Shown: one piece after another, positions 19,514 through 50,920 of the stretch | Layout: every line of letters starts with the position of its first letter | How positions within the stretch are numbered: position 1 is the stretch's first letter | Virus record (IMG/VR): IMGVR_UViG_3300034069_001746 | Direction: 5' to 3' (one strand) | DNA: 58,322 nt | Origin: a virus | The notes under the pieces: model-generated | Databases searched by the model: none | Seen by the model: only the letters and a program-made list of their open reading frames with translations | Told to the model about the DNA's origin: nothing | Made by a program: the position numbers and the translations under genes

Positions 19514-20955
19514 TACTGGGTGCTCCCCAGAATATCAGCGTAGCACGCACTGGTAATGACGCATACTTCATAATCACCCATGGTGAAGATGTAGAAGGTT
19601 AATTGACCTTCCGTGTTAGGCGTATAAACACCAGGTGGTTGTGCTCCTGCATCAATCGCTAACATCTGATTGAGATTACGGGCAAACAACTGAGTTAAAG
19701 GAAGCATGTAATTGAATTGATCGTCGGTGGGAGAATAATCCTGATAGTCTCCAATCAACGTACTAAGATGACTAATAGCAACGGTACCCGACAGATCAGG
19801 GATCACCGAGGCCGTCATGCGGTTATAGTAGACCCCGATAACATCCACATAGTCAGATACATCCCCATAGCCAAGTGGGGTCATGATCTTGTTGGTTAAT
19901 TCAGCATAACTACTAAGAGGGGCAATACGGGGGAAAATAACCTGATCAGGTTTTGTGTAGGTTTGACTATACAAAGGGATTACATAAAAACGCCCGGAGA
20001 CAAACACGCCAGGAATTCTCGCTTTCCAACTAGGGGCGTCTCCTACACCACTGCCCAGCAACGCTGTTTTAATGGCATTACGGATCTCAAACTGTGTTGG
20101 AGCACGTCCTTTGTATAAAAGATTGAACGGTACTGAAGTTGTAGCACTACCATCGGTGATGATGGCTTTGTATTCCACCACCCCTGACACAGACACACTA
20201 CCTAGTAGCGCTGCTGTAGTGCTGTAATTAAGTTCCGCTGTTACTGTTGCTGTAGCAAAGATATTGGCGGTGGTAGTCACCAATGGTGCACTAAAGATCT
20301 GACTAAAGGGGAGAGGATTAATGACTTGGACAATGGTGGAATAATTGTATTGTGCTAGCCATGCAGCAACCGAGGTATAAAGCTTAAGAGCAAATGTGGT
20401 CTGGGTTGATCCTGTTGGTAGCGTGATAGAAAATGTAATATAGGAAGGTACGGTTACCTGCAGGCTTGCCCCATTGGTAATGTACACAGCGTCGGTCAAT
20501 AGCGTTGTTGACTGCGCAAAAGATCCTGGTTGATAAATAGCCGCAATATCAGCATCAGCTAACAGGCTAGCTTCTTTAGCAGCATGCGATGCGGTTGGCT
20601 GATAATAAAACAACAGTAAATCAATAAGCTTAAAAAATCCAGCAGGAGCTGAGTTACTAAGACCATTGATGGTGGACACAAACATTGGAAAAACGGTTTC
20701 ATCGATCACTAAATGAGGTGATGAAACCGCTGGCCAATTAACCGTTCGGCTAGCAGGTGATCGTTTGTCATCGAACACGGCAGGTTTGTTAAAATACGAC
20801 AAAGCCTTGATTGTCAAGGCACCAACATTGATACCATCATCAACATAAATGTCATTGATGTTCTTGCTGGTGTTGACAAAAGCATTGTCGGTAACAAATC
20901 CTTCAATGGTAACACTCTGGTCATTACCAGACATTGGGTGTATTCCTTTGGTCAA
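19513..20955 (-). CDS. Probable virion structural protein
   Basis: 480 aa, coupled to the downstream gene; W-x-x-R-I-P-G-V-F motif. Confidence 0.5.
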   Translation of the reverse strand: MTKGIHPMSGNDQSVTIEGFVTDNAFVNTSKNINDIYVDDGINVGALTIKALSYFNKPAVFDDKRSPASRTVNWPAVSSPHLVIDETVFPMFVSTINGLSNSAPAGFFKLIDLLLFYYQPTASHAAKEASLLADADIAAIYQPGSFAQSTTLLTDAVYITNGASLQVTVPSYITFSITLPTGSTQTTFALKLYTSVAAWLAQYNYSTIVQVINPLPFSQIFSAPLVTTTANIFATATVTAELNYSTTAALLGSVSVSGVVEYKAIITDGSATTSVPFNLLYKGRAPTQFEIRNAIKTALLGSGVGDAPSWKARIPGVFVSGRFYVIPLYSQTYTKPDQVIFPRIAPLSSYAELTNKIMTPLGYGDVSDYVDVIGVYYNRMTASVIPDLSGTVAISHLSTLIGDYQDYSPTDDQFNYMLPLTQLFARNLNQMLAIDAGAQPPGVYTPNTEGQLTFYIFTMGDYEVCVITSACYADILGSTQ

Positions 20956-22144: not shown

Positions 22145-23080
22145 ATGGACAAACAGAACTTAGTGCGTTTGGGAACACACGACGGAAATTTTCATGGTGA
22201 TGATGTTTTAGCCATGGCTATTTTGTCAACATTATACCCTTATCATCAGATCATTCGCAGTCGCGATCCAGACCTTCTTGATTTATGTGATATTCTGGTT
22301 GATGTGGGAGGTCACTATGACCATCACGGTAAACGCTATGATCATCACCTACACAATCCTCCCCTGGATAAAAACAAACATGTTCTATCTAGTGCTGGAT
22401 TAATCTGGCGTCACTATAGCACCGATTATCTTACAGCTATTGGTATTCCTAAGTCTTTTGACTATCAACAAAAAACCATTCATCTGATGAATGAGATTGA
22501 ACGCAACATTAATACCCATTGGATTGTTCCCATTGATCGATTGGACAATGGCGTCACCCAAGGATTTACGGCTATCTCTGAAGTGGTACGGGCCATGCGT
22601 CCCACTGATCCTCAGAAAACGGAAGCGTCGTTCAATCAGGCTTTTCTAGACACCGTTTCCATGGTGGCTCATCTATTTAAGCGTGCGTGTTTTCATTCAG
22701 CCGACCACATCATTGCTAAAACCAAGTGTATGATGGGAAAGAAGACCTTGTTGGAAGAAGGACAGATTGTGATATCAGAGTATCCTGTCCACTCCATTAA
22801 AGCTTATGTTGACAGTGTTGTTCATTTTGTTATCTATCCCTCATTTGAATATAAAGACAGTGATGCTGGTTTTGTGATACGTCTTATTCAGAATGCTGAT
22901 AAAGAATATCGTACCCCATTTCCTGAATCAGTGCTAGGATTACGAAGTGACGCCATTAAACAGGTATTAAACATAGATGGGATCTCCTATGTTCACCATG
23001 CTGGGTTTATGGCCCTGGCTGATACAGAAGAAAACGCTATCACATTGTGCCGTAAACTTCTGACATTCAGTAGTGAGTAA
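22145..23080 (+). CDS. MYG1 (UPF0160) family DHH-like exonuclease
   Basis: THDGNFHGDDVLA, RSRDP, LVDVGG, YDHH, LSSAGLIW, VHHAGF. Confidence 0.9.
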   Translation: MDKQNLVRLGTHDGNFHGDDVLAMAILSTLYPYHQIIRSRDPDLLDLCDILVDVGGHYDHHGKRYDHHLHNPPLDKNKHVLSSAGLIWRHYSTDYLTAIGIPKSFDYQQKTIHLMNEIERNINTHWIVPIDRLDNGVTQGFTAISEVVRAMRPTDPQKTEASFNQAFLDTVSMVAHLFKRACFHSADHIIAKTKCMMGKKTLLEEGQIVISEYPVHSIKAYVDSVVHFVIYPSFEYKDSDAGFVIRLIQNADKEYRTPFPESVLGLRSDAIKQVLNIDGISYVHHAGFMALADTEENAITLCRKLLTFSSE

Positions 23081-27263: not shown

Positions 27264-27641
27264 CTAAGCTGTTTGTGATTTCATATAGTCGATGTAAGAC
27301 AAGACCACGCTTCTAAATAGCGAGTCTTTATACTTAGCAACAAGGGGTAACTGGTCGTAGGGTAAAAGACTGGGATGAGTCTTTAGCTGATCACTTTTGA
27401 TCGCACCATAACGCCAGCCCTGCTGAAGCTTATTATCTACCCAAGCTTGATGAGATTCTGCAGGAGTACGATTAGGCTTATCGAAATAGGCTTTTACGCC
27501 AGCAATGGCTGAAATGCGATTATGAGCTGGAGCTTCTACCCAAGGTTTTTGACTATAATCTCCTTCAGATTCACAATAAGCTTTGTTAGCTTCATGAGCC
27601 ATTTTTGCTATGGCAACAAAGTGCTTGGCCTCCACGTTCAT
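27264..27641 (-). CDS. RyR-domain protein, paralog 1
   Basis: HEANKAY...HQAWV..K.QQGWRYG..KS..LKTHPSLLPYDQLP...KYKD. Confidence 0.85.
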   Translation of the reverse strand: MNVEAKHFVAIAKMAHEANKAYCESEGDYSQKPWVEAPAHNRISAIAGVKAYFDKPNRTPAESHQAWVDNKLQQGWRYGAIKSDQLKTHPSLLPYDQLPLVAKYKDSLFRSVVLSYIDYMKSQTA

Positions 27642-28018
27642 GACAGATGTTCCTCCTTTACAAAATCAGCATAACTCTTGGTGACATAAAGCACTAACCA
27701 GTCCTTATATTTCTCAACAGAGCTGAGCTCAGCGTAAGGAATCATGGAAGGATGGGTCATTTTATCTTTGTCTTTGGTAGGACCGTATTTCCACCCATCA
27801 GACTTTTTGGTTTCAATCCAGATCTTGTGAACATCGTCAGGACTAAGTGTTGGACAATCACAAATAGCCCGCACCGCAGCCATGGCTGAATGGTGATTGT
27901 ATTCGGGAGCTTCAGACCAAGGTTTCTGGCTATTGTCTCCAATGGATTCACAAAATGCGCGGTTAACCTCATGCACAATTTGGGCTAAATCTTTTACAAC
28001 ATCGTCAGACACAAACAT
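27638..28018 (-). CDS. RyR-domain protein, paralog 2
   Basis: HEVNRAF...HKIW..K..DGWKYGPTKD..KMTHPSMIPYAEL...EKYKD. Confidence 0.85.
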   Translation of the reverse strand: MFVSDDVVKDLAQIVHEVNRAFCESIGDNSQKPWSEAPEYNHHSAMAAVRAICDCPTLSPDDVHKIWIETKKSDGWKYGPTKDKDKMTHPSMIPYAELSSVEKYKDWLVLYVTKSYADFVKEEHLS

Positions 28019-28088: not shown

Positions 28089-28367
28089 TTACTGAGGAGA
28101 ATGATAGGCATCACGGTGTTGTTGCATCAATGCGGGCTTTACCAATGTCTGGCAGGTTCCACAAGGAACTCGCTGTTGTTCATTTTCTTGTCGGTAGTGA
28201 TTAGTTAAAAAAGCAATATGTAGTTGGCGTCTAGTAAATTGGTGAAGATATTCTTCGGCAGATCGCCTGGTACCTTTATTAAGCTGTTTTTTCTTTTTAT
28301 GACCGGGGTGTACAGTATCATCATCGAATATGTGATCAGCAGCGCTAGTGGATTCAGGGTCAAACAT
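28089..28367 (-). CDS. Small protein with a C2H2-like zinc finger
   Basis: CGTC-x10-H-x4-H at the C-terminus. Confidence 0.5.
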   Translation of the reverse strand: MFDPESTSAADHIFDDDTVHPGHKKKKQLNKGTRRSAEEYLHQFTRRQLHIAFLTNHYRQENEQQRVPCGTCQTLVKPALMQQHRDAYHSPQ

Positions 28368-28462: not shown

Positions 28463-28975
28463 TCACTGACCCGAACGAACCAAATCGGTTTTAAGCTTTT
28501 CACGAATTTCCATCCATAATTTTCCTAGAGCATTTTGTCCGTCACCATTCGGTCCAATCCCGTAAAAATCATCTCGCCAGGAATTCTCTATAAGTTCACG
28601 GTTACCCGTCTGCATAAGCTTACGACGAACGTACTCGTGTTGTCTAACTTTGGTCATGAGAATAGCACGCATGATCCCAAGTTTGATTTCATCCCAATCC
28701 GGGCGTCTCATGGACTTATACGCTTGTGCAATCTGAAAGGCATCATGAGCAGAAGGAGCTGTTCTAATTCTTTCTTGAAGAATGTCTAAATCAATTTGTT
28801 TGTTGGGATCCAAATAGTTAAACTTCTCCCAATGATACACTGCATCAGAGGTATCAAAGCGCAGATTCTTCCAGATTACTGTAAAGGAACTAAAATTCGA
28901 GAGCCCGTAGTATTCCTGTTCGTAAAAGAAAACTTTGTCATCAGTGTCCAAGCCATGACATTCGTGATTCATCAT
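28463..28975 (-). CDS. NADAR (YbiA-like) family protein
   Basis: FFY...LSNF, RPDWDEIK, K..QH, L..TGNRELIENSWRDDFYG..G.GQNALGKLWMEIR. Confidence 0.92.
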   Translation of the reverse strand: MMNHECHGLDTDDKVFFYEQEYYGLSNFSSFTVIWKNLRFDTSDAVYHWEKFNYLDPNKQIDLDILQERIRTAPSAHDAFQIAQAYKSMRRPDWDEIKLGIMRAILMTKVRQHEYVRRKLMQTGNRELIENSWRDDFYGIGPNGDGQNALGKLWMEIREKLKTDLVRSGQ

Positions 28976-28985
28976 AGACTCCTAC

Positions 28986-29303
28986 TTATCTTGACGTTGA
29001 TCTAGTGTTGAACTGTGATAATGAAACTGAAACTGTTTGGGGACAATCAATAATACCTGCTTTGGTGTAACGGATAGTGATTCCTGTTCCTGTGGTAAGA
29101 TAATGACAACCAGTTTGGACGTCTTCCCAGACACTTCCCACTGCACTTGGATTCGAGTTGCCTAGTTCCTTTAAAACATCTGGGTCGTAAGCTATATGTT
29201 TGGCTTCTTCTTTCTTTGAATCAGGAAAAGAACATTGTGCTACCCCGACCGCCGCAACAGCAATCAAAGCCGCAACAAGACCATATTCTATCGCTGTTGC
29301 CAT
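28986..29303 (-). CDS. Flp/Tad pilin-like N-terminus fused to a small Cys-containing domain
   Basis: AAGGA RBS upstream of ATG 29303 gives M-ATAIEYGLVAALIAVAAV; C-terminal D-x2-TGCHYL...GIT-x-R motif. Confidence 0.7.
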   Translation of the reverse strand: MATAIEYGLVAALIAVAAVGVAQCSFPDSKKEEAKHIAYDPDVLKELGNSNPSAVGSVWEDVQTGCHYLTTGTGITIRYTKAGIIDCPQTVSVSLSQFNTRSTSR

Positions 29304-29400
29304 TCTGATATCCTTTTTAAAGGTAACGTACATTGATCTTCATGACATCACATGCTTCAGTTGTTTTATTTCTTTCCCTGTGAAGTCACCAATAAAGCTG

Positions 29401-29421
29401 AGTCACTATATTACCTACATG
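29401..29421 (+). promoter_or_regulatory. Early promoter, TCAC-TATATTAC-N5-TG
   Basis: TATATTAC at 29407-29414. Confidence 0.6.
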
Positions 29422-39675: not shown

Positions 39676-41175
39676 ATGGATTCTGATCTGTTTAGTAGGC
39701 AAAGGAATATGCTTGAATATTTATACAAGTTTTTCTTAGTACCTGGTGTTTTCACCGCCGATCTTATCACTGCCACCAGCTACGTTATTATTTCTTTGTT
39801 TTTGATGCGGCTTGCTTGGCACCGTGATGACATCAAGAAAAGTAAACTGTTTTGGTTTTTCACACTAGCTTTGATGTCAAGAGCCTTTATTCATTGCTTT
39901 ATGGCGTTTAACACCGTTCGCAATCGGTTTGACATTCTGATTCCCACCAAGATTGTGTACGCCGTTTCATCAATTGGTTTGATTTACTTATTGTGGAAAG
40001 TGTTTCCTCAATTAATAAAGCTTCCCACCTTTGATCATTTAGCTACCGTTAACGCTCATCTTGAACAAACCATCGCTGAACTCACTGATGAAAAAGAACA
40101 GCACCTAAAAGTACAAGAAAAGCTGATTCAATCACAAAAGATGGAAGCAGTGGGTCAACTCACTGGTGGTATTGCTCACGATTTTAATAATTTACTTCAA
40201 GCCATTGGTGGTAATCTAGAGTTAATCAGGCGCAATCCTCTAAGTTCCAAGATTGATCGGTGGCTTGGTAACAGTATTGAATCGGTGGCGCGTGCGGCCC
40301 ATCTCACGGGTCAGTTGCTGACCTTCTCACGCGATCAAAAGCTGGACTTAAAAGAGATTTCTTTACTTACCTGTATGACCAATCTTAAAAACATGGTTAA
40401 CCGGGTAATGGGAATTGCCATCACCATTGTCATGGAAGACATTGACGATGTTATCATCTTTGTTGACCCTATTCAGCTAGAACTTGCCTTGCTTAACTTA
40501 TCGCTTAATGCAAGAGATGCCATTGTCGATAAAGGGACAATTACATTTTCAACCCAGTGCGATGATCACCATGTGGAAATCAATGTCACGGACACAGGAC
40601 ATGGTATCCCTGAGCCCATCGCGTCTAAAATCTTTGATCCTTTTTTCACCACCAAAGATATCGGTAAGGGCACTGGATTAGGGTTGAGCATGGTTCACAG
40701 CGTCATGCTTCAATTTGAAGGAGATGTTTACATTAAGCAAACATCCCCCAAAGGAACCACCTTTACTCTTAGTCTTCCTTTGGTAGCAAATCGTCCTGTT
40801 CCTGCCAAACACGATGTTGTTGTCGTCTCCGATCAAAAGCATGTGCTAGTGATTGATGATGAACGAGTGGTACGTGAAATTCTAGAAGACTTTGTTCAAG
40901 AAGCAGGGTACCGGGTAGATACGTGCGAGGATGGTGCTGAGGCATTAGTGTTTCTCAAAACAACCAAGCCTGATTTAGTTCTTTGTGACTTTGCGATGCC
41001 GATGATGACGGGTGATGAAGTGTCACGCGCTATTAAGATGATCTACCCTGATCTTCCTTTAGTGTTTGTTACAGGCTATGCAAAGAGCGACACCATGGGC
41101 GATCACCTGGTGCTAAAGAAACCCTTTGGCGCTGATAAAATCAAAGCTATCATTGAAAAGGCTTTACAACAGTGA
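39676..41175 (+). CDS. Hybrid sensor histidine kinase (3-TM ethylene-receptor-like sensor, HisKA, HATPase, REC)
   Basis: QKMEAVGQLTGGIAHDFNNLL, NARDA, DTGHGI, FFTTK, GTGLGL, REC domain VLVIDDE...CDFAMP...KPF. N-terminus aligns by eye with the ETR1 sensor helices. Confidence 0.92.
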   Translation: MDSDLFSRQRNMLEYLYKFFLVPGVFTADLITATSYVIISLFLMRLAWHRDDIKKSKLFWFFTLALMSRAFIHCFMAFNTVRNRFDILIPTKIVYAVSSIGLIYLLWKVFPQLIKLPTFDHLATVNAHLEQTIAELTDEKEQHLKVQEKLIQSQKMEAVGQLTGGIAHDFNNLLQAIGGNLELIRRNPLSSKIDRWLGNSIESVARAAHLTGQLLTFSRDQKLDLKEISLLTCMTNLKNMVNRVMGIAITIVMEDIDDVIIFVDPIQLELALLNLSLNARDAIVDKGTITFSTQCDDHHVEINVTDTGHGIPEPIASKIFDPFFTTKDIGKGTGLGLSMVHSVMLQFEGDVYIKQTSPKGTTFTLSLPLVANRPVPAKHDVVVVSDQKHVLVIDDERVVREILEDFVQEAGYRVDTCEDGAEALVFLKTTKPDLVLCDFAMPMMTGDEVSRAIKMIYPDLPLVFVTGYAKSDTMGDHLVLKKPFGADKIKAIIEKALQQ

Positions 41176-45654: not shown

Positions 45655-47184
45655 ATGGAGAACATGATGCGCGTTTCTACCAAGATTCTATTATCGGTGT
45701 CAGTACTGGCAGGTTGTGCACCGGTTGCCGTACCCTCGCTGGCTCAGACAGCTACCGTGAAAGTTCCTACCTGTCTTCAGGTCCGTGACGATGTGAAGTA
45801 TTTCATTCCTTGCACCGGCGTCGTACCGGTGGATACCGCTACAGGTAATGCCCTTAGTTGGGCTGACCTGCTTGCGGGAAATAGTGGTAATGGTAGCGGT
45901 AGCACCTCTACTACTACAGCGCCTAACACGCCTAGCAACAGTGTTACCCCAGTGCAGAATGCTGATGGTAGCAAAATTGCCACCGACACTAATCTGTTAG
46001 CCCTTAAGACTGCTCTGGGTAATCCTTTCCAGGCTGGTGGTTCTGTTAGCAACACTTATTTTGGTGCCCGGTTGCAGGATCCTATGGGAGCGGCGTTGGG
46101 TACGTCTACTAACCCGCTGTATGTCACCGGTAACACCGCTGGTAGTAGCGGCTCCAGTCTGCCTTCGGGAGCTGCTGGTTTTCCTAGTGCCTCAGTGGTC
46201 ACCGTGCAGGGTATTACCGGGGGCACAACTCTTCCTGTTACGGTAAGTAACTTTCCCTCATCGACCACGGTGACGGGTAATGTAACGCTTAGTGGATCAC
46301 TGCCTGGTTTTGCTAACACCCCCACTGTTAACATTGGTACGATGCCAACGCTGACGGTGACCACGGCTCTAGCATCTGGGGCTGCAACATCAGCTAAGCA
46401 GGATGCTACCATCGCTGCCATTGGTACGCCATTTCAGGTAGGTGGTACGATCGGTAATACCGGTTTTGGAGCAAAACTTCAGGACAATACAGGTGCTGCT
46501 TTTGGTACCAGCACTAATCCGATTTATGTTACCGGTCTTTCAGGCGGTGGTAGCGGTGGTGCGGTTAGCGGTACGGTGACAGCTAATCTTGGCACCCTTA
46601 ACGGGGCTGCAACTGATGCTAGTGTGCAGGCTGTTAAGACGCAGCTGGGATCACCTTTCCAGGCAGGTGGATCCATTGCCAATACGTCTTTTGGTATTGC
46701 AGGAACGCTTCCTGGTTTTGCTAGCACGCCAACCTTTAATCTGGGTACAGCTCCTCAGCTAAACGTTAGCATAGCCGCTCAGACAGCACCGGTTAACGTC
46801 ACAGCAACATCGCTACCGCTGCCAACTGGAGCTGCGACGGCTGCCGCTCAAGCCAGTTTACTGAGTGCCGTTGGTACGCCGGTTCAGGCAGGTACTGCTC
46901 TTAGCAACGTTGTTCAGGCGGTGACCACCGATAATGGGGCCGTCGTGGGTACCACGGCCATGACGCTGATTCCTGCCAATCCAGCCCGCCGGGGTTTTTC
47001 TATCCAGAATCAATCCACAACAGCTAGCTGTTATATCAATGGCAGCGCGGCAGCGACGGCTGATTACCACAGTCTCCAGATTGGACCTGGTGGTTATTTT
47101 GAACCCGATCACCATGTCACCACTGGTAACCTTTCTATTATCTGCTCAGCAGCTGGAACGTCAGTTTATGCTCGTTCTTGGTAA
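45655..47184 (+). CDS. Exported (possible lipoprotein, LAGC) Gly/Thr/Ala-rich repeat protein
   Basis: Leader MMRVSTKILLSVSVLAGC; repeated GxPFQxGG and GxLPGFAxTPT units; N-domain shared with 38646. Confidence 0.75.
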   Translation: MENMMRVSTKILLSVSVLAGCAPVAVPSLAQTATVKVPTCLQVRDDVKYFIPCTGVVPVDTATGNALSWADLLAGNSGNGSGSTSTTTAPNTPSNSVTPVQNADGSKIATDTNLLALKTALGNPFQAGGSVSNTYFGARLQDPMGAALGTSTNPLYVTGNTAGSSGSSLPSGAAGFPSASVVTVQGITGGTTLPVTVSNFPSSTTVTGNVTLSGSLPGFANTPTVNIGTMPTLTVTTALASGAATSAKQDATIAAIGTPFQVGGTIGNTGFGAKLQDNTGAAFGTSTNPIYVTGLSGGGSGGAVSGTVTANLGTLNGAATDASVQAVKTQLGSPFQAGGSIANTSFGIAGTLPGFASTPTFNLGTAPQLNVSIAAQTAPVNVTATSLPLPTGAATAAAQASLLSAVGTPVQAGTALSNVVQAVTTDNGAVVGTTAMTLIPANPARRGFSIQNQSTTASCYINGSAAATADYHSLQIGPGGYFEPDHHVTTGNLSIICSAAGTSVYARSW

Positions 47185-47202
47185 GCGCTAACTAACCTAA
47201 CC

Positions 47203-47244
47203 TAGTAAGTAAGAGAAGATGGTACCATCTTCTCTTACTTACTA
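47203..47244. terminator. 42-bp perfect palindrome
   Basis: TAGTAAGTAAGAGAAGATGGT|ACCATCTTCTCTTACTTACTA. Confidence 0.8.
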
Positions 47245-47293
47245 ATAAAGCCATACGGCTTTTGATGATTTAAACAGTATTTGAGGATCACCT

Positions 47294-50200
47294 ATGTTTT
47301 TACAGGCGTTGTTTAACCGCTTTGGGTTAAACGTTAATAAGGTTCCACAGGCGTTGGCGGCCTCGACCACCAATAACTTTACGGGTAATCTGACGGTATT
47401 AAGCCGCCAGCTCAGCTCAACCTCCGTGATGTCGTTGCTAGGTAGTCATCCCAACATTTCCTTGAATGGTACTACCCTTCAAGTCACATCAGCGCTCGGT
47501 GACAGCGCGGCTGATGTCCTTGTGGTGCGAGAACAAGATGGTAATTTTGCCATGGAGTATCCGGTAAACATTACCACTCCAGCACCCGTTCCTGTAGTGG
47601 GTACAATTCCCGCACCCGTTGTGATGCGTCCAACCGGACCGGTTGGGATGAATGTTGGCGGTACTGGTTACTATGGGGTAAACTTTCTATTTCTTGACCG
47701 GATGAAGACGGCCAATTGGTGGTCATCCACGAATAACAACGGCAAAGCCGTGATGAACTTCGATAGTAACAACAATCCTTATCCTGCTCCCCCACAGACT
47801 GATAGTGATAACTATCCAACCGTCTTGAATCAAGGAAACCCTTATTATACTCTCGTCAATGTTGATGGGCCTCTGAGTGGGGTTGCTCAGATCTATATCC
47901 TTGAGTGTGCCAATACGACGGTCAACTTCTCTATTGGTGGCGGTGGTACCATCGTCCATAGGGAACCCACCACTGGCGGCAAGCAGCGCATCACCATTGA
48001 TGCCACCAACGCCATCAATGACCAAGGCTATTATTTCAGTCTGTATGTTGATGCGCCCTTGTCAGGTACACCAGTCACTATATTTCGGCAAGACCAGGAG
48101 ACGCTGTTTAAAGCAGGTAACGTCTTCACCCCGGAGACTCTGAGTCGATTGAACCAATTTGGTACCATTCGTTTCATGGACTGGCTCAGCACCAACGGGA
48201 CGATCGCACCCGTATGGGCAGACAGAGTAAAAGTCAGTAGCCTGAACTACTACGTCACACCACTTGAGATCTGTATTCTGTTATGTAACCTGCTCAAAGT
48301 CGATGGGTGGTTCTGTATTCCAGCCGGAGCCAGTGACGACTATATCACACAGTTCGTGACTTTGATTGAGACCACACTTGATCCCAGTTTGCGAGCTTAT
48401 TATGAGTACTCCAACGAAATGTGGAACTCTGGTTTTGGCCAATATGGCTGGCTCCAGTATACATACCAGCCACCTGTTGATCTGAGCAAGGGTGGATGGC
48501 CCGCCTTTGTAAGGGGTGGGTTTCTTTCAGCACGCGCCATGGCTCTAGTGCTGAAGACGGCCAATTTTTCAGCGCGCACCCGACCCTTGCTGATGGGACA
48601 GGCTGGATACAATGCGGTGCTTGATGTGTTCAACAATGGGGTAAACTACGCCATTGCGGACTGGTCCGACCCAACGAGCGCACGCTATGACAGTGTGTTC
48701 GCTACTCGGTGCCAGGTTTTTAATCAGATCTACTCTGGCATTGGTGTAGCTGGATATTTCGATGGGTCGCTAGGTGACGACAGTATGACACCGGCCGACA
48801 AAGCCAAAGTGGAGAGCTGGGCCAACGCCACCGATGACAGTGGTAAAGCTGCCGCTTTTCGTCAGGTTGAATTCGGTGATCAGCTCACCGTCAACAGCAA
48901 CGCGCTGGTCAACTATCCCGCGATCTTCGCGGGTCTCGCTGATCGCGCTCAGGCGTGGCAAGTTCCCATATTGGGTTATGAGGGCGGGTTTGACCTTATA
49001 TCAATGGGTGTCTGGAAAGATGCACATGACGTGAAGAATAATGATGGTACGGTCACCCATGTTCCAACCGATCCAAATCAAAGTTTGATAACGAATTTCT
49101 TCCAAGCTCTCACGGTCGATCCTCGTGCCCAAGCCATCACTCATAAGTGGGTCAATGCGATGCGGCAGCTGGATTTCAGTCTCATCTGCCAATATAACGA
49201 CGTTGGTAGCAACGCTTCTAAATATGGTATTTGGGGATCCATGACTGATGCTTATCACCCCAATTGTCCAAAGCAATTAGGTCTACTGGACGCTATTGCT
49301 AATCCCGTTAATCTTCCACCAATTTCTATCAGCACTGCGTATAACGGAGCAACCGCGGTTGGCTCTAACCCAACCATGACGATCACAACTACCGGTGGTG
49401 TCGGTAAAGTAGTGCTCACCGTAACAGGTCTTGCCGCCGGCCGTGTTTTTAACAATTGCCGCTCGGTAACAGGCGTGTATACTCAGCAGCAAACCACCAA
49501 CATTGTTATTACAGCAACAGACGATTCGGGTAACAGCCCTACGGTGATCACGGTTGCTGAAACTGTAACACCCACCAGGATCGTTCCAGGTGGCTATGTT
49601 GGATTCCGTCTCACACCTAGTGTCAACCTAAACGGGAACAAACCAGGCGACCAGTATTGGACAATCGGCATCGGTGAAATATTCTTAATGACAGATGGTG
49701 TACCTACCTATTTACAAGACTGGATACTCACCACAGATTACGGCAATGGTAACCAACAAAACATCAGTACCATCCATGATGGAAATCTGACTACAAGTTG
49801 GACTAGCAACACTGGTGGAGGCGGTACGACTTTTAAATTGATGGCACCTCTTGGTACCTCAGTTCTACCAAGTTACCTAGGAATCGGTAATCAAAACCAA
49901 GTATACTTGTGGAATATTGCCACCTTCGGACTCGTTGAAGGTACCAAGGATGGTACAACGTGGAGTCCGATTGCTACCAATGTATCTCTGACGTACAATG
50001 CTGATGGTGTAGCATCGATTCCAGTGGTGTTACCTGACTACACTGTTACAGCCCCTGTTAATCAGATGACTCTTGGGACGACATCAGGTAATTTCACGGT
50101 CACGCTCAATACTACTAGCAGCACCGCCACTACACTTACGCCTTCGGACAATGGGGCAGGAGGTACATTCACCCCCGCGTCTGTTGTAATCCCCGCTGGC

Positions 50201-50920
50201 TCGACTAGTGCTACATTTACGTATCTACCAGTAAGTGCATCAATGGCCATCAAGGTGCACAACAATAGAAACTTAATTAATCCTGATGCAATTACCACTG
50301 TAGCTTATACAACAGATGCTCCTGTATTAACAGCCAGTGCTTCTACACCTGCTAATGCTAACTCTGCGTCTACCACGACGGTTCAGCTCTCTGTAACCGC
50401 AGGAGAGTTAATCTTTGTTGGTCATGCGTTTGTATCAGGCGATACCGCTTCGGTTACCGATACTGCCGGTAACTCGTATACGGTTCTACCGACCACTAAT
50501 GATGGAAACGGAACAAGCATTGGAGCAGCTTATACTGTTGCCCAAAGTACAGCTACTCTAACAATTACATGGGCTCTTACAGGAGCTAGCACGTATCGCA
50601 CTCTCATAGCTTGTGCTTACACCGGTAGCTGCACAACGTTTGATAGCACTGTTACTAGTGTTGCACCAGGGCAAGTAACGATGCAACAAACGGGTAAATT
50701 CAGCACCACCCAGAACAGCCAGCTTGTTCTTGGTGTGGCTGAGGCACCACCAAACGTGACGGTTAGCTCGCCATTGTCAGCGATTCAGTCTGTTGGATAT
50801 GCTGCCCTTTTCGGTGGGGTGGTAGCTGCACCGGTGACAGATAAGGTAGTTAATATCGGAGTCGCGTACAATAATTACGGGGCGACCCGAGTTGTGGTGT
50901 TTAAGCGGGCATCTCACTAA
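47294..50920 (+). CDS. Large multidomain putative glycoside hydrolase / carbohydrate-binding protein (possible depolymerase or fibre)
   Basis: IRFMDW, YEYSNEMWN and GYEGG (clan GH-A-like pair of Glu residues), then Ig-like and discoidin-like (HDGNLTTSW, EGTKDGTTW) beta domains. Confidence 0.65.
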   Translation: MFLQALFNRFGLNVNKVPQALAASTTNNFTGNLTVLSRQLSSTSVMSLLGSHPNISLNGTTLQVTSALGDSAADVLVVREQDGNFAMEYPVNITTPAPVPVVGTIPAPVVMRPTGPVGMNVGGTGYYGVNFLFLDRMKTANWWSSTNNNGKAVMNFDSNNNPYPAPPQTDSDNYPTVLNQGNPYYTLVNVDGPLSGVAQIYILECANTTVNFSIGGGGTIVHREPTTGGKQRITIDATNAINDQGYYFSLYVDAPLSGTPVTIFRQDQETLFKAGNVFTPETLSRLNQFGTIRFMDWLSTNGTIAPVWADRVKVSSLNYYVTPLEICILLCNLLKVDGWFCIPAGASDDYITQFVTLIETTLDPSLRAYYEYSNEMWNSGFGQYGWLQYTYQPPVDLSKGGWPAFVRGGFLSARAMALVLKTANFSARTRPLLMGQAGYNAVLDVFNNGVNYAIADWSDPTSARYDSVFATRCQVFNQIYSGIGVAGYFDGSLGDDSMTPADKAKVESWANATDDSGKAAAFRQVEFGDQLTVNSNALVNYPAIFAGLADRAQAWQVPILGYEGGFDLISMGVWKDAHDVKNNDGTVTHVPTDPNQSLITNFFQALTVDPRAQAITHKWVNAMRQLDFSLICQYNDVGSNASKYGIWGSMTDAYHPNCPKQLGLLDAIANPVNLPPISISTAYNGATAVGSNPTMTITTTGGVGKVVLTVTGLAAGRVFNNCRSVTGVYTQQQTTNIVITATDDSGNSPTVITVAETVTPTRIVPGGYVGFRLTPSVNLNGNKPGDQYWTIGIGEIFLMTDGVPTYLQDWILTTDYGNGNQQNISTIHDGNLTTSWTSNTGGGGTTFKLMAPLGTSVLPSYLGIGNQNQVYLWNIATFGLVEGTKDGTTWSPIATNVSLTYNADGVASIPVVLPDYTVTAPVNQMTLGTTSGNFTVTLNTTSSTATTLTPSDNGAGGTFTPASVVIPAGSTSATFTYLPVSASMAIKVHNNRNLINPDAITTVAYTTDAPVLTASASTPANANSASTTTVQLSVTAGELIFVGHAFVSGDTASVTDTAGNSYTVLPTTNDGNGTSIGAAYTVAQSTATLTITWALTGASTYRTLIACAYTGSCTTFDSTVTSVAPGQVTMQQTGKFSTTQNSQLVLGVAEAPPNVTVSSPLSAIQSVGYAALFGGVVAAPVTDKVVNIGVAYNNYGATRVVVFKRASH

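Follow-up and report, generated by a model that had tools for sequence, protein, structure and literature searches.

How does a phage gene come to encode a protein that begins with the N-terminus of a processed pilin, and what might such a protein do to the host? These questions were raised by a minus-strand ORF at positions 28986–29303 of a 58,322-nt stretch of viral DNA (IMG/VR record IMGVR_UViG_3300034069_001746; the whole stretch is referred to here as the window). Its 105-aa product begins M-ATAIEYGLVAALIAV, and its residues from the start read MATAIEYGLVAALIAVAAVGV. The window contains split RNA polymerase beta genes together with baseplate and virion genes and is phage DNA. Protein identity to phiKZ-like phages was only about 24–28%, and the source is an uncultivated jumbo phage of the phiKZ-like kind.

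The position of the start codon was examined first for its translation signals. The ATG at 29303–29301 is preceded by AAGGA (29315–29311) with a 7-nt spacer. In a crude set made up of the 48 long ORFs of the window, AAGGA was the commonest SD sequence (13/48), mostly lying 6–9 nt before the ATG. A second in-frame ATG at 29331–29333 has no SD; reading from there gives a 115-aa protein (MYVTFKKDIR followed by M...), and the JGI annotation of the gene (P0010) is this 115-aa form from ATG 29333. We took 29303 as the better start because it has the consensus SD of the phage and 29333 has none, so that the RBS support claimed for 29303 in a first-pass annotation of this DNA was borne out by the window's most frequent SD. 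On the basis of the ORF list, the SD-supported start and the alignments of homologs, the CDS of the leaderless Flp-DUF6440 protein (P0001) was placed at 28986–29303 on the minus strand, stop codon included. The product contains three Cys residues (positions 24, 66 and 87).

The first-pass annotation had also described the N-terminus as essentially that of a mature Flp pilin and had proposed a search against Pfam Flp_Fap (PF04964) as a check. This profile matched residues 2–23 at profile positions 8–29 with an E-value of 2.9e-7, yet the score of 30.6 bits is below the gathering cutoff of 32.2 bits, which the 115-aa form exceeds (36.3 bits). Analysis by phmmer aligned residues 2–20 to residues 1–19 of the mature PilA chains (45 aa) in the Caulobacter Tad pilus structures PDB 8U2B and 8U1K. 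Identity to mature Caulobacter PilA was complete at the tip (8/8) and 13/17 across the N-terminal seventeen residues, and the register was exact, residue 2 corresponding to PilA residue 1, which upheld the earlier description. The Glu5-Tyr6 motif of Flp pilins is present within a hydrophobic alpha1N segment (ATAIEYGL, then a hydrophobic helix), and AlphaFold2 placed the helix at residues 5–22. We therefore annotated residues 2–23 (29235–29300, minus strand) from the Flp_Fap match and the PilA alignment as an Flp-type alpha1N helix, presumably an inner-membrane anchor or docking element. A chance resemblance to Flp was ruled out by the Pfam E-value together with the existence of a family of eight proteins. 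A Met that precedes Ala at position 2 is normally cut off by methionine aminopeptidase. With this Met gone, the phage protein would begin exactly where a processed Flp pilin does.

Other features of Flp pilins were absent. There is no prepilin leader ending in Gly or Ala(-1), and position -1 is taken by the Met of the SD-supported start; without a translated leader and Gly(-1), the protein is not expected to be a prepilin peptidase substrate. Flp pilins are short, all-helical and head-less subunits, whereas the phage protein has a linker and a four-strand beta head after its helix. It was not filed as an Flp pilin because it has no Gly(-1), no translated leader and a globular head; judged by these features, the protein is Flp-derived and not an Flp pilin.

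An exhaustive HMMER phmmer search of 1.84 billion representatives yielded seven homologs (P0002–P0008; 83–107 aa; E 8e-21 to 1e-5), in each of which residue 1 aligned to the Met of ATG 29303. The called N-termini of all seven read M-A-T/V-A/G-I-E-Y/H-G, which bears on the concern, raised in the first-pass annotation, that homologs might lack the IEYGL motif. Flp_Fap matches at E ≤ 0.1 were obtained for 7 of the 8 family members. Upstream DNA was read for one homolog, P0005, which is encoded at locus L001; this IMG/VR contig also has genes for PhoH, thymidylate kinase and HNH endonuclease. An in-frame TAG lies directly before the ATG of P0005, a TAGGAG is found upstream, and the stop codon makes a leader impossible in L001. 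The leaderless structure first noticed in a single gene is thus found in a family of eight proteins that all start at this Met, one of them with a stop codon abutting the ATG.

Conservation within the family was uneven. Mean pairwise identity was 0.89 in the Flp motif (residues 1–9), 0.35 in the rest of the helix (residues 10–23), 0.13 in the linker (residues 24–54), where lengths vary, and 0.39 in the head (residues 55–90). The Flp motif was therefore the most conserved segment, and Glu6 was invariant; such identity in a motif with a charged Glu is hard to explain if the helix were a purely hydrophobic anchor. Also invariant were Cys66 and Cys87, with a spacing fixed at 21–22 residues, and Cys24 was not conserved. 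The gene neighbourhoods differed between the window and L001, the two phages with DNA read, as expected of a mobile accessory gene; no synteny between them was found beyond HNH endonucleases. A word-based protein search returned no match except the protein itself, and an ESM Atlas search gave no usable match. In 50,697 deposited phage genomes, tblastn found nothing at E ≤ 1e-3 and, at E ≤ 10, matches to the head only and never to the Flp N-terminus. The surrounding 10 kb had no megablast match among phages.

Leaderless Flp helices were not confined to this family. Pattern scans for the leaderless motif gave 18 loci, and those other than L001 carried MATAIEYGLIAA... before their tails. These tails mostly had no detectable similarity to the phage family or to each other, and exactly two Cys were present in every one of the seven tails of 49 or more residues. 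Bacterial leaderless MATAIEYGL genes were located at L003:10001-10339, L004:10001-10369 (the same as L006 and L013), L007:10001-10291, L017:10001-10285, L014:4657-4956 and L015:2872-3150. L003, L004, L007 and L017 are plain bacterial chromosome, with dnaK-dnaJ, aminoacyl-tRNA synthetase genes, accC and rpoA as neighbours, and three of the bacterial leaderless genes lie near dnaK-dnaJ. An A24 prepilin peptidase was encoded in all five genomes searched and a canonical leader-bearing Flp in one of them, and the leaderless gene was the sole Flp_Fap match in three. Leaderless Flp helices with small two-Cys heads accordingly form a wider class and are not a phage invention, and the class is undescribed as far as we found; a literature search on leaderless pilins, prepilin peptidase and Tad found no paper. 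The scans also returned four loci from Pseudoxanthobacter MAGs (L005:10001-10705, L010, L016:1653-2357 and L018) that combine the Flp alpha1N motif with Hint_2; the two loci scanned gave Pfam E-values of 6e-41 (L016) and 7e-43 (L005). The reading frame of these genes is open upstream, and the protein may be longer, with the Met inside it.

The sequence upstream of the phage gene bears on its origin. The ten codons at 29304–29333 (minus strand; MYVTFKKDIR) were annotated from the Flp_Fap gain and the SD statistics as vestigial Flp leader codons, most likely 5' UTR now. They add 5.7 bits to the Flp_Fap score (30.6 to 36.3), and the match then begins at profile position 1, so the codons still resemble an Flp leader. 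The Met start falls on profile position 7, the site of the Gly(-1) cleavage residue, and the SD AAGGA (29311–29315) falls on two adjacent codons of the remnant, those for Lys and Asp (AAG GAT). We infer an origin from the 5' end of a normal flp gene, whose Gly(-1) codon turned into the start and whose purine-rich leader codons now act as the RBS. Among other leaderless genes, the corresponding gain was 4.7 bits in L003 (upstream KKESG-M), 4.4 bits in L008 (RKDRV-M), 4.5 bits in L015 and 2.9 bits in L014, and about 0 in L002, L004 and L011. The gains are modest one by one, but they recur in independent loci.

The helix is followed by a variable, probably disordered linker (residues 24–54; 29142–29234, minus strand), recognized by low pLDDT, which fell below 50 for residues 25–36 in the AlphaFold2 model, and by its low identity and variable length in the family. 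Beyond it, hhalign, BFVD and Pfam located a DUF6440-type beta head with the elements ETGC.Y, GITIRY and G..DCP (residues 49–92; 29028–29159, minus strand), and AlphaFold2 modelled a small four-strand beta unit at residues 44–77 (pLDDT 70–83). The Pfam DUF6440 profile (PF20037) matched the window protein with 17.5 bits (E 0.0035), below its cutoff of 26.5 bits; sub-threshold matches were obtained for 4 of the 8 family members (best E 2e-4), and phrog_11767 matched with an E-value of 2e-4. In the BFVD viral structure library, the top matches were small phage DUF6440 proteins, and several of the small phage proteins matched there, DUF6440-named or not, were annotated as lipoproteins. For profile comparison we used four weak tblastn matches, from Bacillus phages SP-15 and Emiliahah, Ralstonia phage YL4 and 'Xanthomonas' phage Xoo-sp15. 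All four proteins exceed the Pfam DUF6440 cutoff and all four have a lipobox (VVGC, LAGC, LSGC and LGGC). Comparison of the head with these four DUF6440 phage lipoproteins by hhalign gave a probability of 97.9% and E 3.4e-13 over residues 49–92, and the signature D.ETGC.Y ... G.T.R ... G..C is common to them and the leaderless family.

By this profile comparison, the head is a divergent DUF6440 domain. The domain of about 80 aa with Cys residues that the first-pass annotation had seen is thus present, and it is this divergent head, homologous to small phage lipoproteins, and not a new kind of pilin tail. Its identity brings in a reading that the first-pass annotation had not considered, in which the helix is an anchor only. 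As far as the comparison goes, the head is a generic exported phage module, its lipoprotein signal swapped for a pre-processed Flp helix. Cys66 (codon 29106–29108) and Cys87 (codon 29043–29045) probably form a disulfide. Because the Cys spacing is fixed and the relatives are exported, the head would be periplasmic and disulfide-bonded, in the N-in/C-out topology of a pilin. Cys24 was considered as a lipoprotein site and rejected; V-A-Q-C is no lipobox, and the other members have no Cys24. Foldseek searches of the PDB gave nothing significant (weak SH3-like rows, E ≥ 1), and the best match in a wide VIA-align search (Z 4.1) was propeller-blade-like and uninformative. In the literature, a mention of DUF6440 was found only in a Listeria monocytogenes genome report, once and outside the title and abstract.

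Caulobacter phages such as PhiCbK and PhiCb5 use Tad pili as receptors. In the model that we prefer, to which we give a little less than an even chance, the helix docks on the Tad pilin-handling machinery of the host and the head caps or stalls assembly. The accessory gene of the jumbo phage would give rise to a bitopic inner-membrane protein. With a Met start in place of Gly(-1), Met removal would leave the N-terminus of a processed Flp/Tad pilin, no prepilin peptidase being needed, and a floppy linker would connect the helix to a small periplasmic DUF6440 head, which probably has a disulfide bond. The pre-processed alpha1N helix would enter the host's inner-membrane pool of mature pilin and dock on components that handle mature Flp, such as a TadB/C-type platform or the base of the growing pilus. 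The bulky head would misfit the head-less Tad filament, so that assembly would be capped or stalled and functional Tad pili lost, and this loss would shut out pilus-dependent phages and alter the surface behaviour of the host. Of this chain, Met removal, the N-in/C-out topology and the disulfide are predictions, as are the docking to Tad components and the phage exclusion. Capping or jamming of the pilus, exclusion of pilus-specific phages and altered pilin signalling had been suggested in the first-pass annotation, and published phage copies of FimU and PilA (PMC12952977) together with the signalling segment of PilA (PMC7196804) make such roles plausible.

Several properties of type 4 filaments are relevant to this model. 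The prepilin leader, which invariably ends in Gly or Ala, keeps the N-terminus inside, and the peptidase must remove it before assembly; Glu5 forms a pair with the free amine at the N-terminus of the adjacent subunit; and the Tad peptidase has no methylase domain, so that Flp N-termini need no methylation (PMC10191384). Because leader removal precedes assembly, Glu5 pairs with the amine and methylation is not needed, a protein born with the mature N-terminus could pass, to the Tad platform, as an assembly-ready pilin. The strongest evidence against this and every other pilin-mimic reading comes from Caulobacter, where an engineered leaderless PilA (pilA15-59) did not complement, a failure that the authors ascribed to lack of translocation (PMC7196804). 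The longer natural proteins could permit co-translational targeting, and their relatives are exported. Prepilin topology is normally fixed by the positive charges of the leader (PMC10191384); the phage family shows a weak charge balance around its helix, the net charge that follows it being -1 to +3. Tomich and colleagues reportedly tested pre-processed Flp1, TadE and TadF in their TadV paper.

Other explanations were weighed against this model. The Flp helix might be an anchor only, tethering to the outer face of the inner membrane a DUF6440 head that acts as an effector on another envelope target, with no role for Tad. We consider this less likely than the docking model but the most serious of its competitors. 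Homologous heads are lipoprotein-anchored in Bacillus, Ralstonia and other phages, so that one anchor can stand in for another; selection acts on the head too, as its invariant Cys, Gly and Pro show; and bacterial chromosomes, at sites distant from tad genes, encode unrelated two-Cys tails behind the same leaderless N-terminus. No Flp_Fap match was found in the control genome of Bacillus subtilis, and since the same head is lipoprotein-anchored in Bacillus phages, its activity need not concern Tad pili. What an anchor leaves unexplained is that M-ATAIEYGL and its Glu are kept while the remaining helix drifts, and an acidic N-terminus without a basic residue would be a poor generic signal-anchor. 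Less probable still is a signalling role, in which the helix would imitate the reservoir of retracted pilin and act on a PleC-type kinase, raising c-di-GMP, promoting retraction and advancing the cell cycle, with a head that stabilizes the protein or helps insertion. The first 17 residues of mature PilA suffice for PleC-PleD activation, and when the PilA peptide is added, susceptibility to PhiCbK falls by 77% and attachment by 71% (PMC7196804); the phage protein is identical to this signalling segment at 13 of 17 positions, and the phage carries a Sphingomonadales-type hybrid histidine kinase. However, conservation sits in the universal Flp motif and not along the whole helix face that contacts the kinase TM segment, signalling has no need for a conserved head, PleC-type pilin sensing is documented in Caulobacter only, and the leaderless PilA construct did not signal (PMC7196804).

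Two further readings concern the fate of the N-terminus, and we hold both to be very improbable. If translation began at ATG 29333, the product would be a prepilin made uncleavable by Met at -1, which would titrate the peptidase or stay unprocessed in the membrane. The in-frame ATG, the leader-like ten residues with their gain of 5.7 bits, the Flp_Fap cutoff passed in the 115-aa form only, the JGI call of that form and the rule that leaders invariably end in Gly or Ala (PMC10191384) all fit this reading, but the consensus SD stands before 29303 and none before 29333. Moreover, all seven homologs are called from the Met and a leader is impossible in L001, so that leaderlessness is the conserved feature. 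The N-terminus might instead be an export signal, removed by signal peptidase I to release a soluble DUF6440 domain into the periplasm, as small residues near the helix end of some members (A-N-A in P0003) would allow. An acidic n-region without basic residues is against such a signal, V-A-Q before Cys24 fits no signal peptidase I site, and conservation of the motif would be left unexplained.

Compared with known systems, the phage protein shares with Flp/Fap pilins (Caulobacter PilA, PF04964) the ATAIEYGL sequence, Glu5-Tyr6 and the hydrophobic alpha1N, and differs in having a linker and beta head in place of the short helical tail and no tad genes nearby. P-FimU and P-PilA of Pseudomonas and Xylella phages are copies of host T4aP subunits, which are shown or proposed to alter T4a pili and exclude pilus phages; some PilA copies in virulent phages consist of the N-terminal helix only (Sztanko et al., Cell Rep 2026, PMC12952977). 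As in those cases, a phage gene is homologous to a pilus subunit, here for the N-terminal 23 residues only. Unlike them, it relates to Tad/Flp and not T4aP, is pre-processed and not leader-bearing, and is fused to an unrelated phage head; Sztanko et al. do not mention Flp, Tad, leaders or PilD (PMC12952977). The DUF6440 lipoproteins (SP15_117 of SP-15 and YL4_32 of the Ralstonia phage) have a homologous two-Cys head and a similar small size, with a lipobox ending in Cys where the phage protein has the Flp helix. CIP, a 17-residue segment of Caulobacter PilA, is the same pilin segment (13/17 identical) and acts from the inner membrane; it is part of a leader-bearing host pilin, and showed no activity when engineered without the leader (Del Medico et al. 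2020, PMC7196804). Tad minor 'adapter' pilins and Tip complexes (KilK/KilO, KilLMN) comprise small Flp-like subunits as well as subunits with extra domains carried on a Tad pilus, but they have a leader and cleavage motif, depend on the peptidase and are encoded in host tad/kil clusters (PMC12075869). A table entry for phage-borne Flp genes in Sinorhizobium prophages was the only published trace found (PMC12429752).

According to reviews, pilins are functional only after prepilin peptidase has removed the leader (PMC10191384, PMC12075869), and a natural leaderless Flp N-terminus would be a counter-example to obligatory leader removal. Such a protein would serve to ask whether the leader is needed for insertion, topology or assembly. 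If the model is true, the strategy of phage-encoded pilus subunits extends from T4a to Tad pili, and the pilin-mimic reading would offer a first clue to what DUF6440 does, a head domain widespread among phages. A small encoded blocker of Tad pili would also be useful for studies of adhesion and surface sensing. More broadly, and with more doubt than we attach to the model itself, there may be a natural class of peptidase-independent type IVc pilin-like proteins, in which Gly(-1) became the start and leader codons the RBS. Jumbo phages would join the ready-made helix to an exported head and use it to poison or reprogram the Tad pilus or pilin sensing, and bacterial analogues, including those of ultra-small Patescibacteria-labelled genomes, would carry unrelated disulfide-bonded heads.

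Tad/Flp pili are common in alphaproteobacteria. The window encodes a hybrid histidine kinase (39676–41175, plus strand) whose nearest named bacterial relatives are all Sphingomonadales; these relatives, at 35–39% identity, are the sole basis for placing the host, which is probably alphaproteobacterial and of Sphingomonadales type. The closest relatives of the kinase were two paralog-like proteins, 64% and 50% identical to it, encoded together on a contig of 32,149 nt. P0002, the homolog nearest to the Flp-like protein, was likewise seen on a contig of 32,149 nt, and a sister phage that carries the two genes is suggested. The first-pass annotation had stated that the window holds no other tad genes, and this agreed with our scans: a six-frame motif scan of the window found no second pilin-like N-terminus, and PHROG and Pfam scans of its large ORFs found no Tad/Cpa family.

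The Flp-like gene heads a minus-strand run that continues with a NADAR-domain gene, a 92-aa ORF and two RyR-domain genes. The NADAR-domain gene (28463–28975, minus strand), noted for context only, has its own AGGAG and starts 10 nt after the stop of the Flp-like gene. The 92-aa ORF (28089–28367, minus strand) has no family match and carries C..C ... H....H near its C-terminus, possibly a small zinc finger; the two RyR-domain genes of the same run lie in tandem at 27264–28018 (minus strand). Elsewhere in this jumbo phage, a homolog of MYG1/UPF0160-type exonucleases was found at 22145–23080 (plus strand; Pfam E 1e-51). The GC content of the window is about 0.43, and a rise to 0.49–0.51 at 46001–50000 coincides with a 1208-aa ORF (47294–50920) that has no PHROG match. 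The sequence TATATTAC occurred 7 times in the window against 2.1 expected, a count reached in 0 of 100 shuffles, and its one-mismatch copies were not enriched. Its copies lie at 1252, 7816, 23085, 29407, 51709 and 55626 on the plus strand and at 20435 on the minus strand, mostly just 5' of plus-strand genes, and the sequence probably serves the phage as a promoter element. The copy at 29407–29414 points away from the Flp-like gene, toward the opposite operon.
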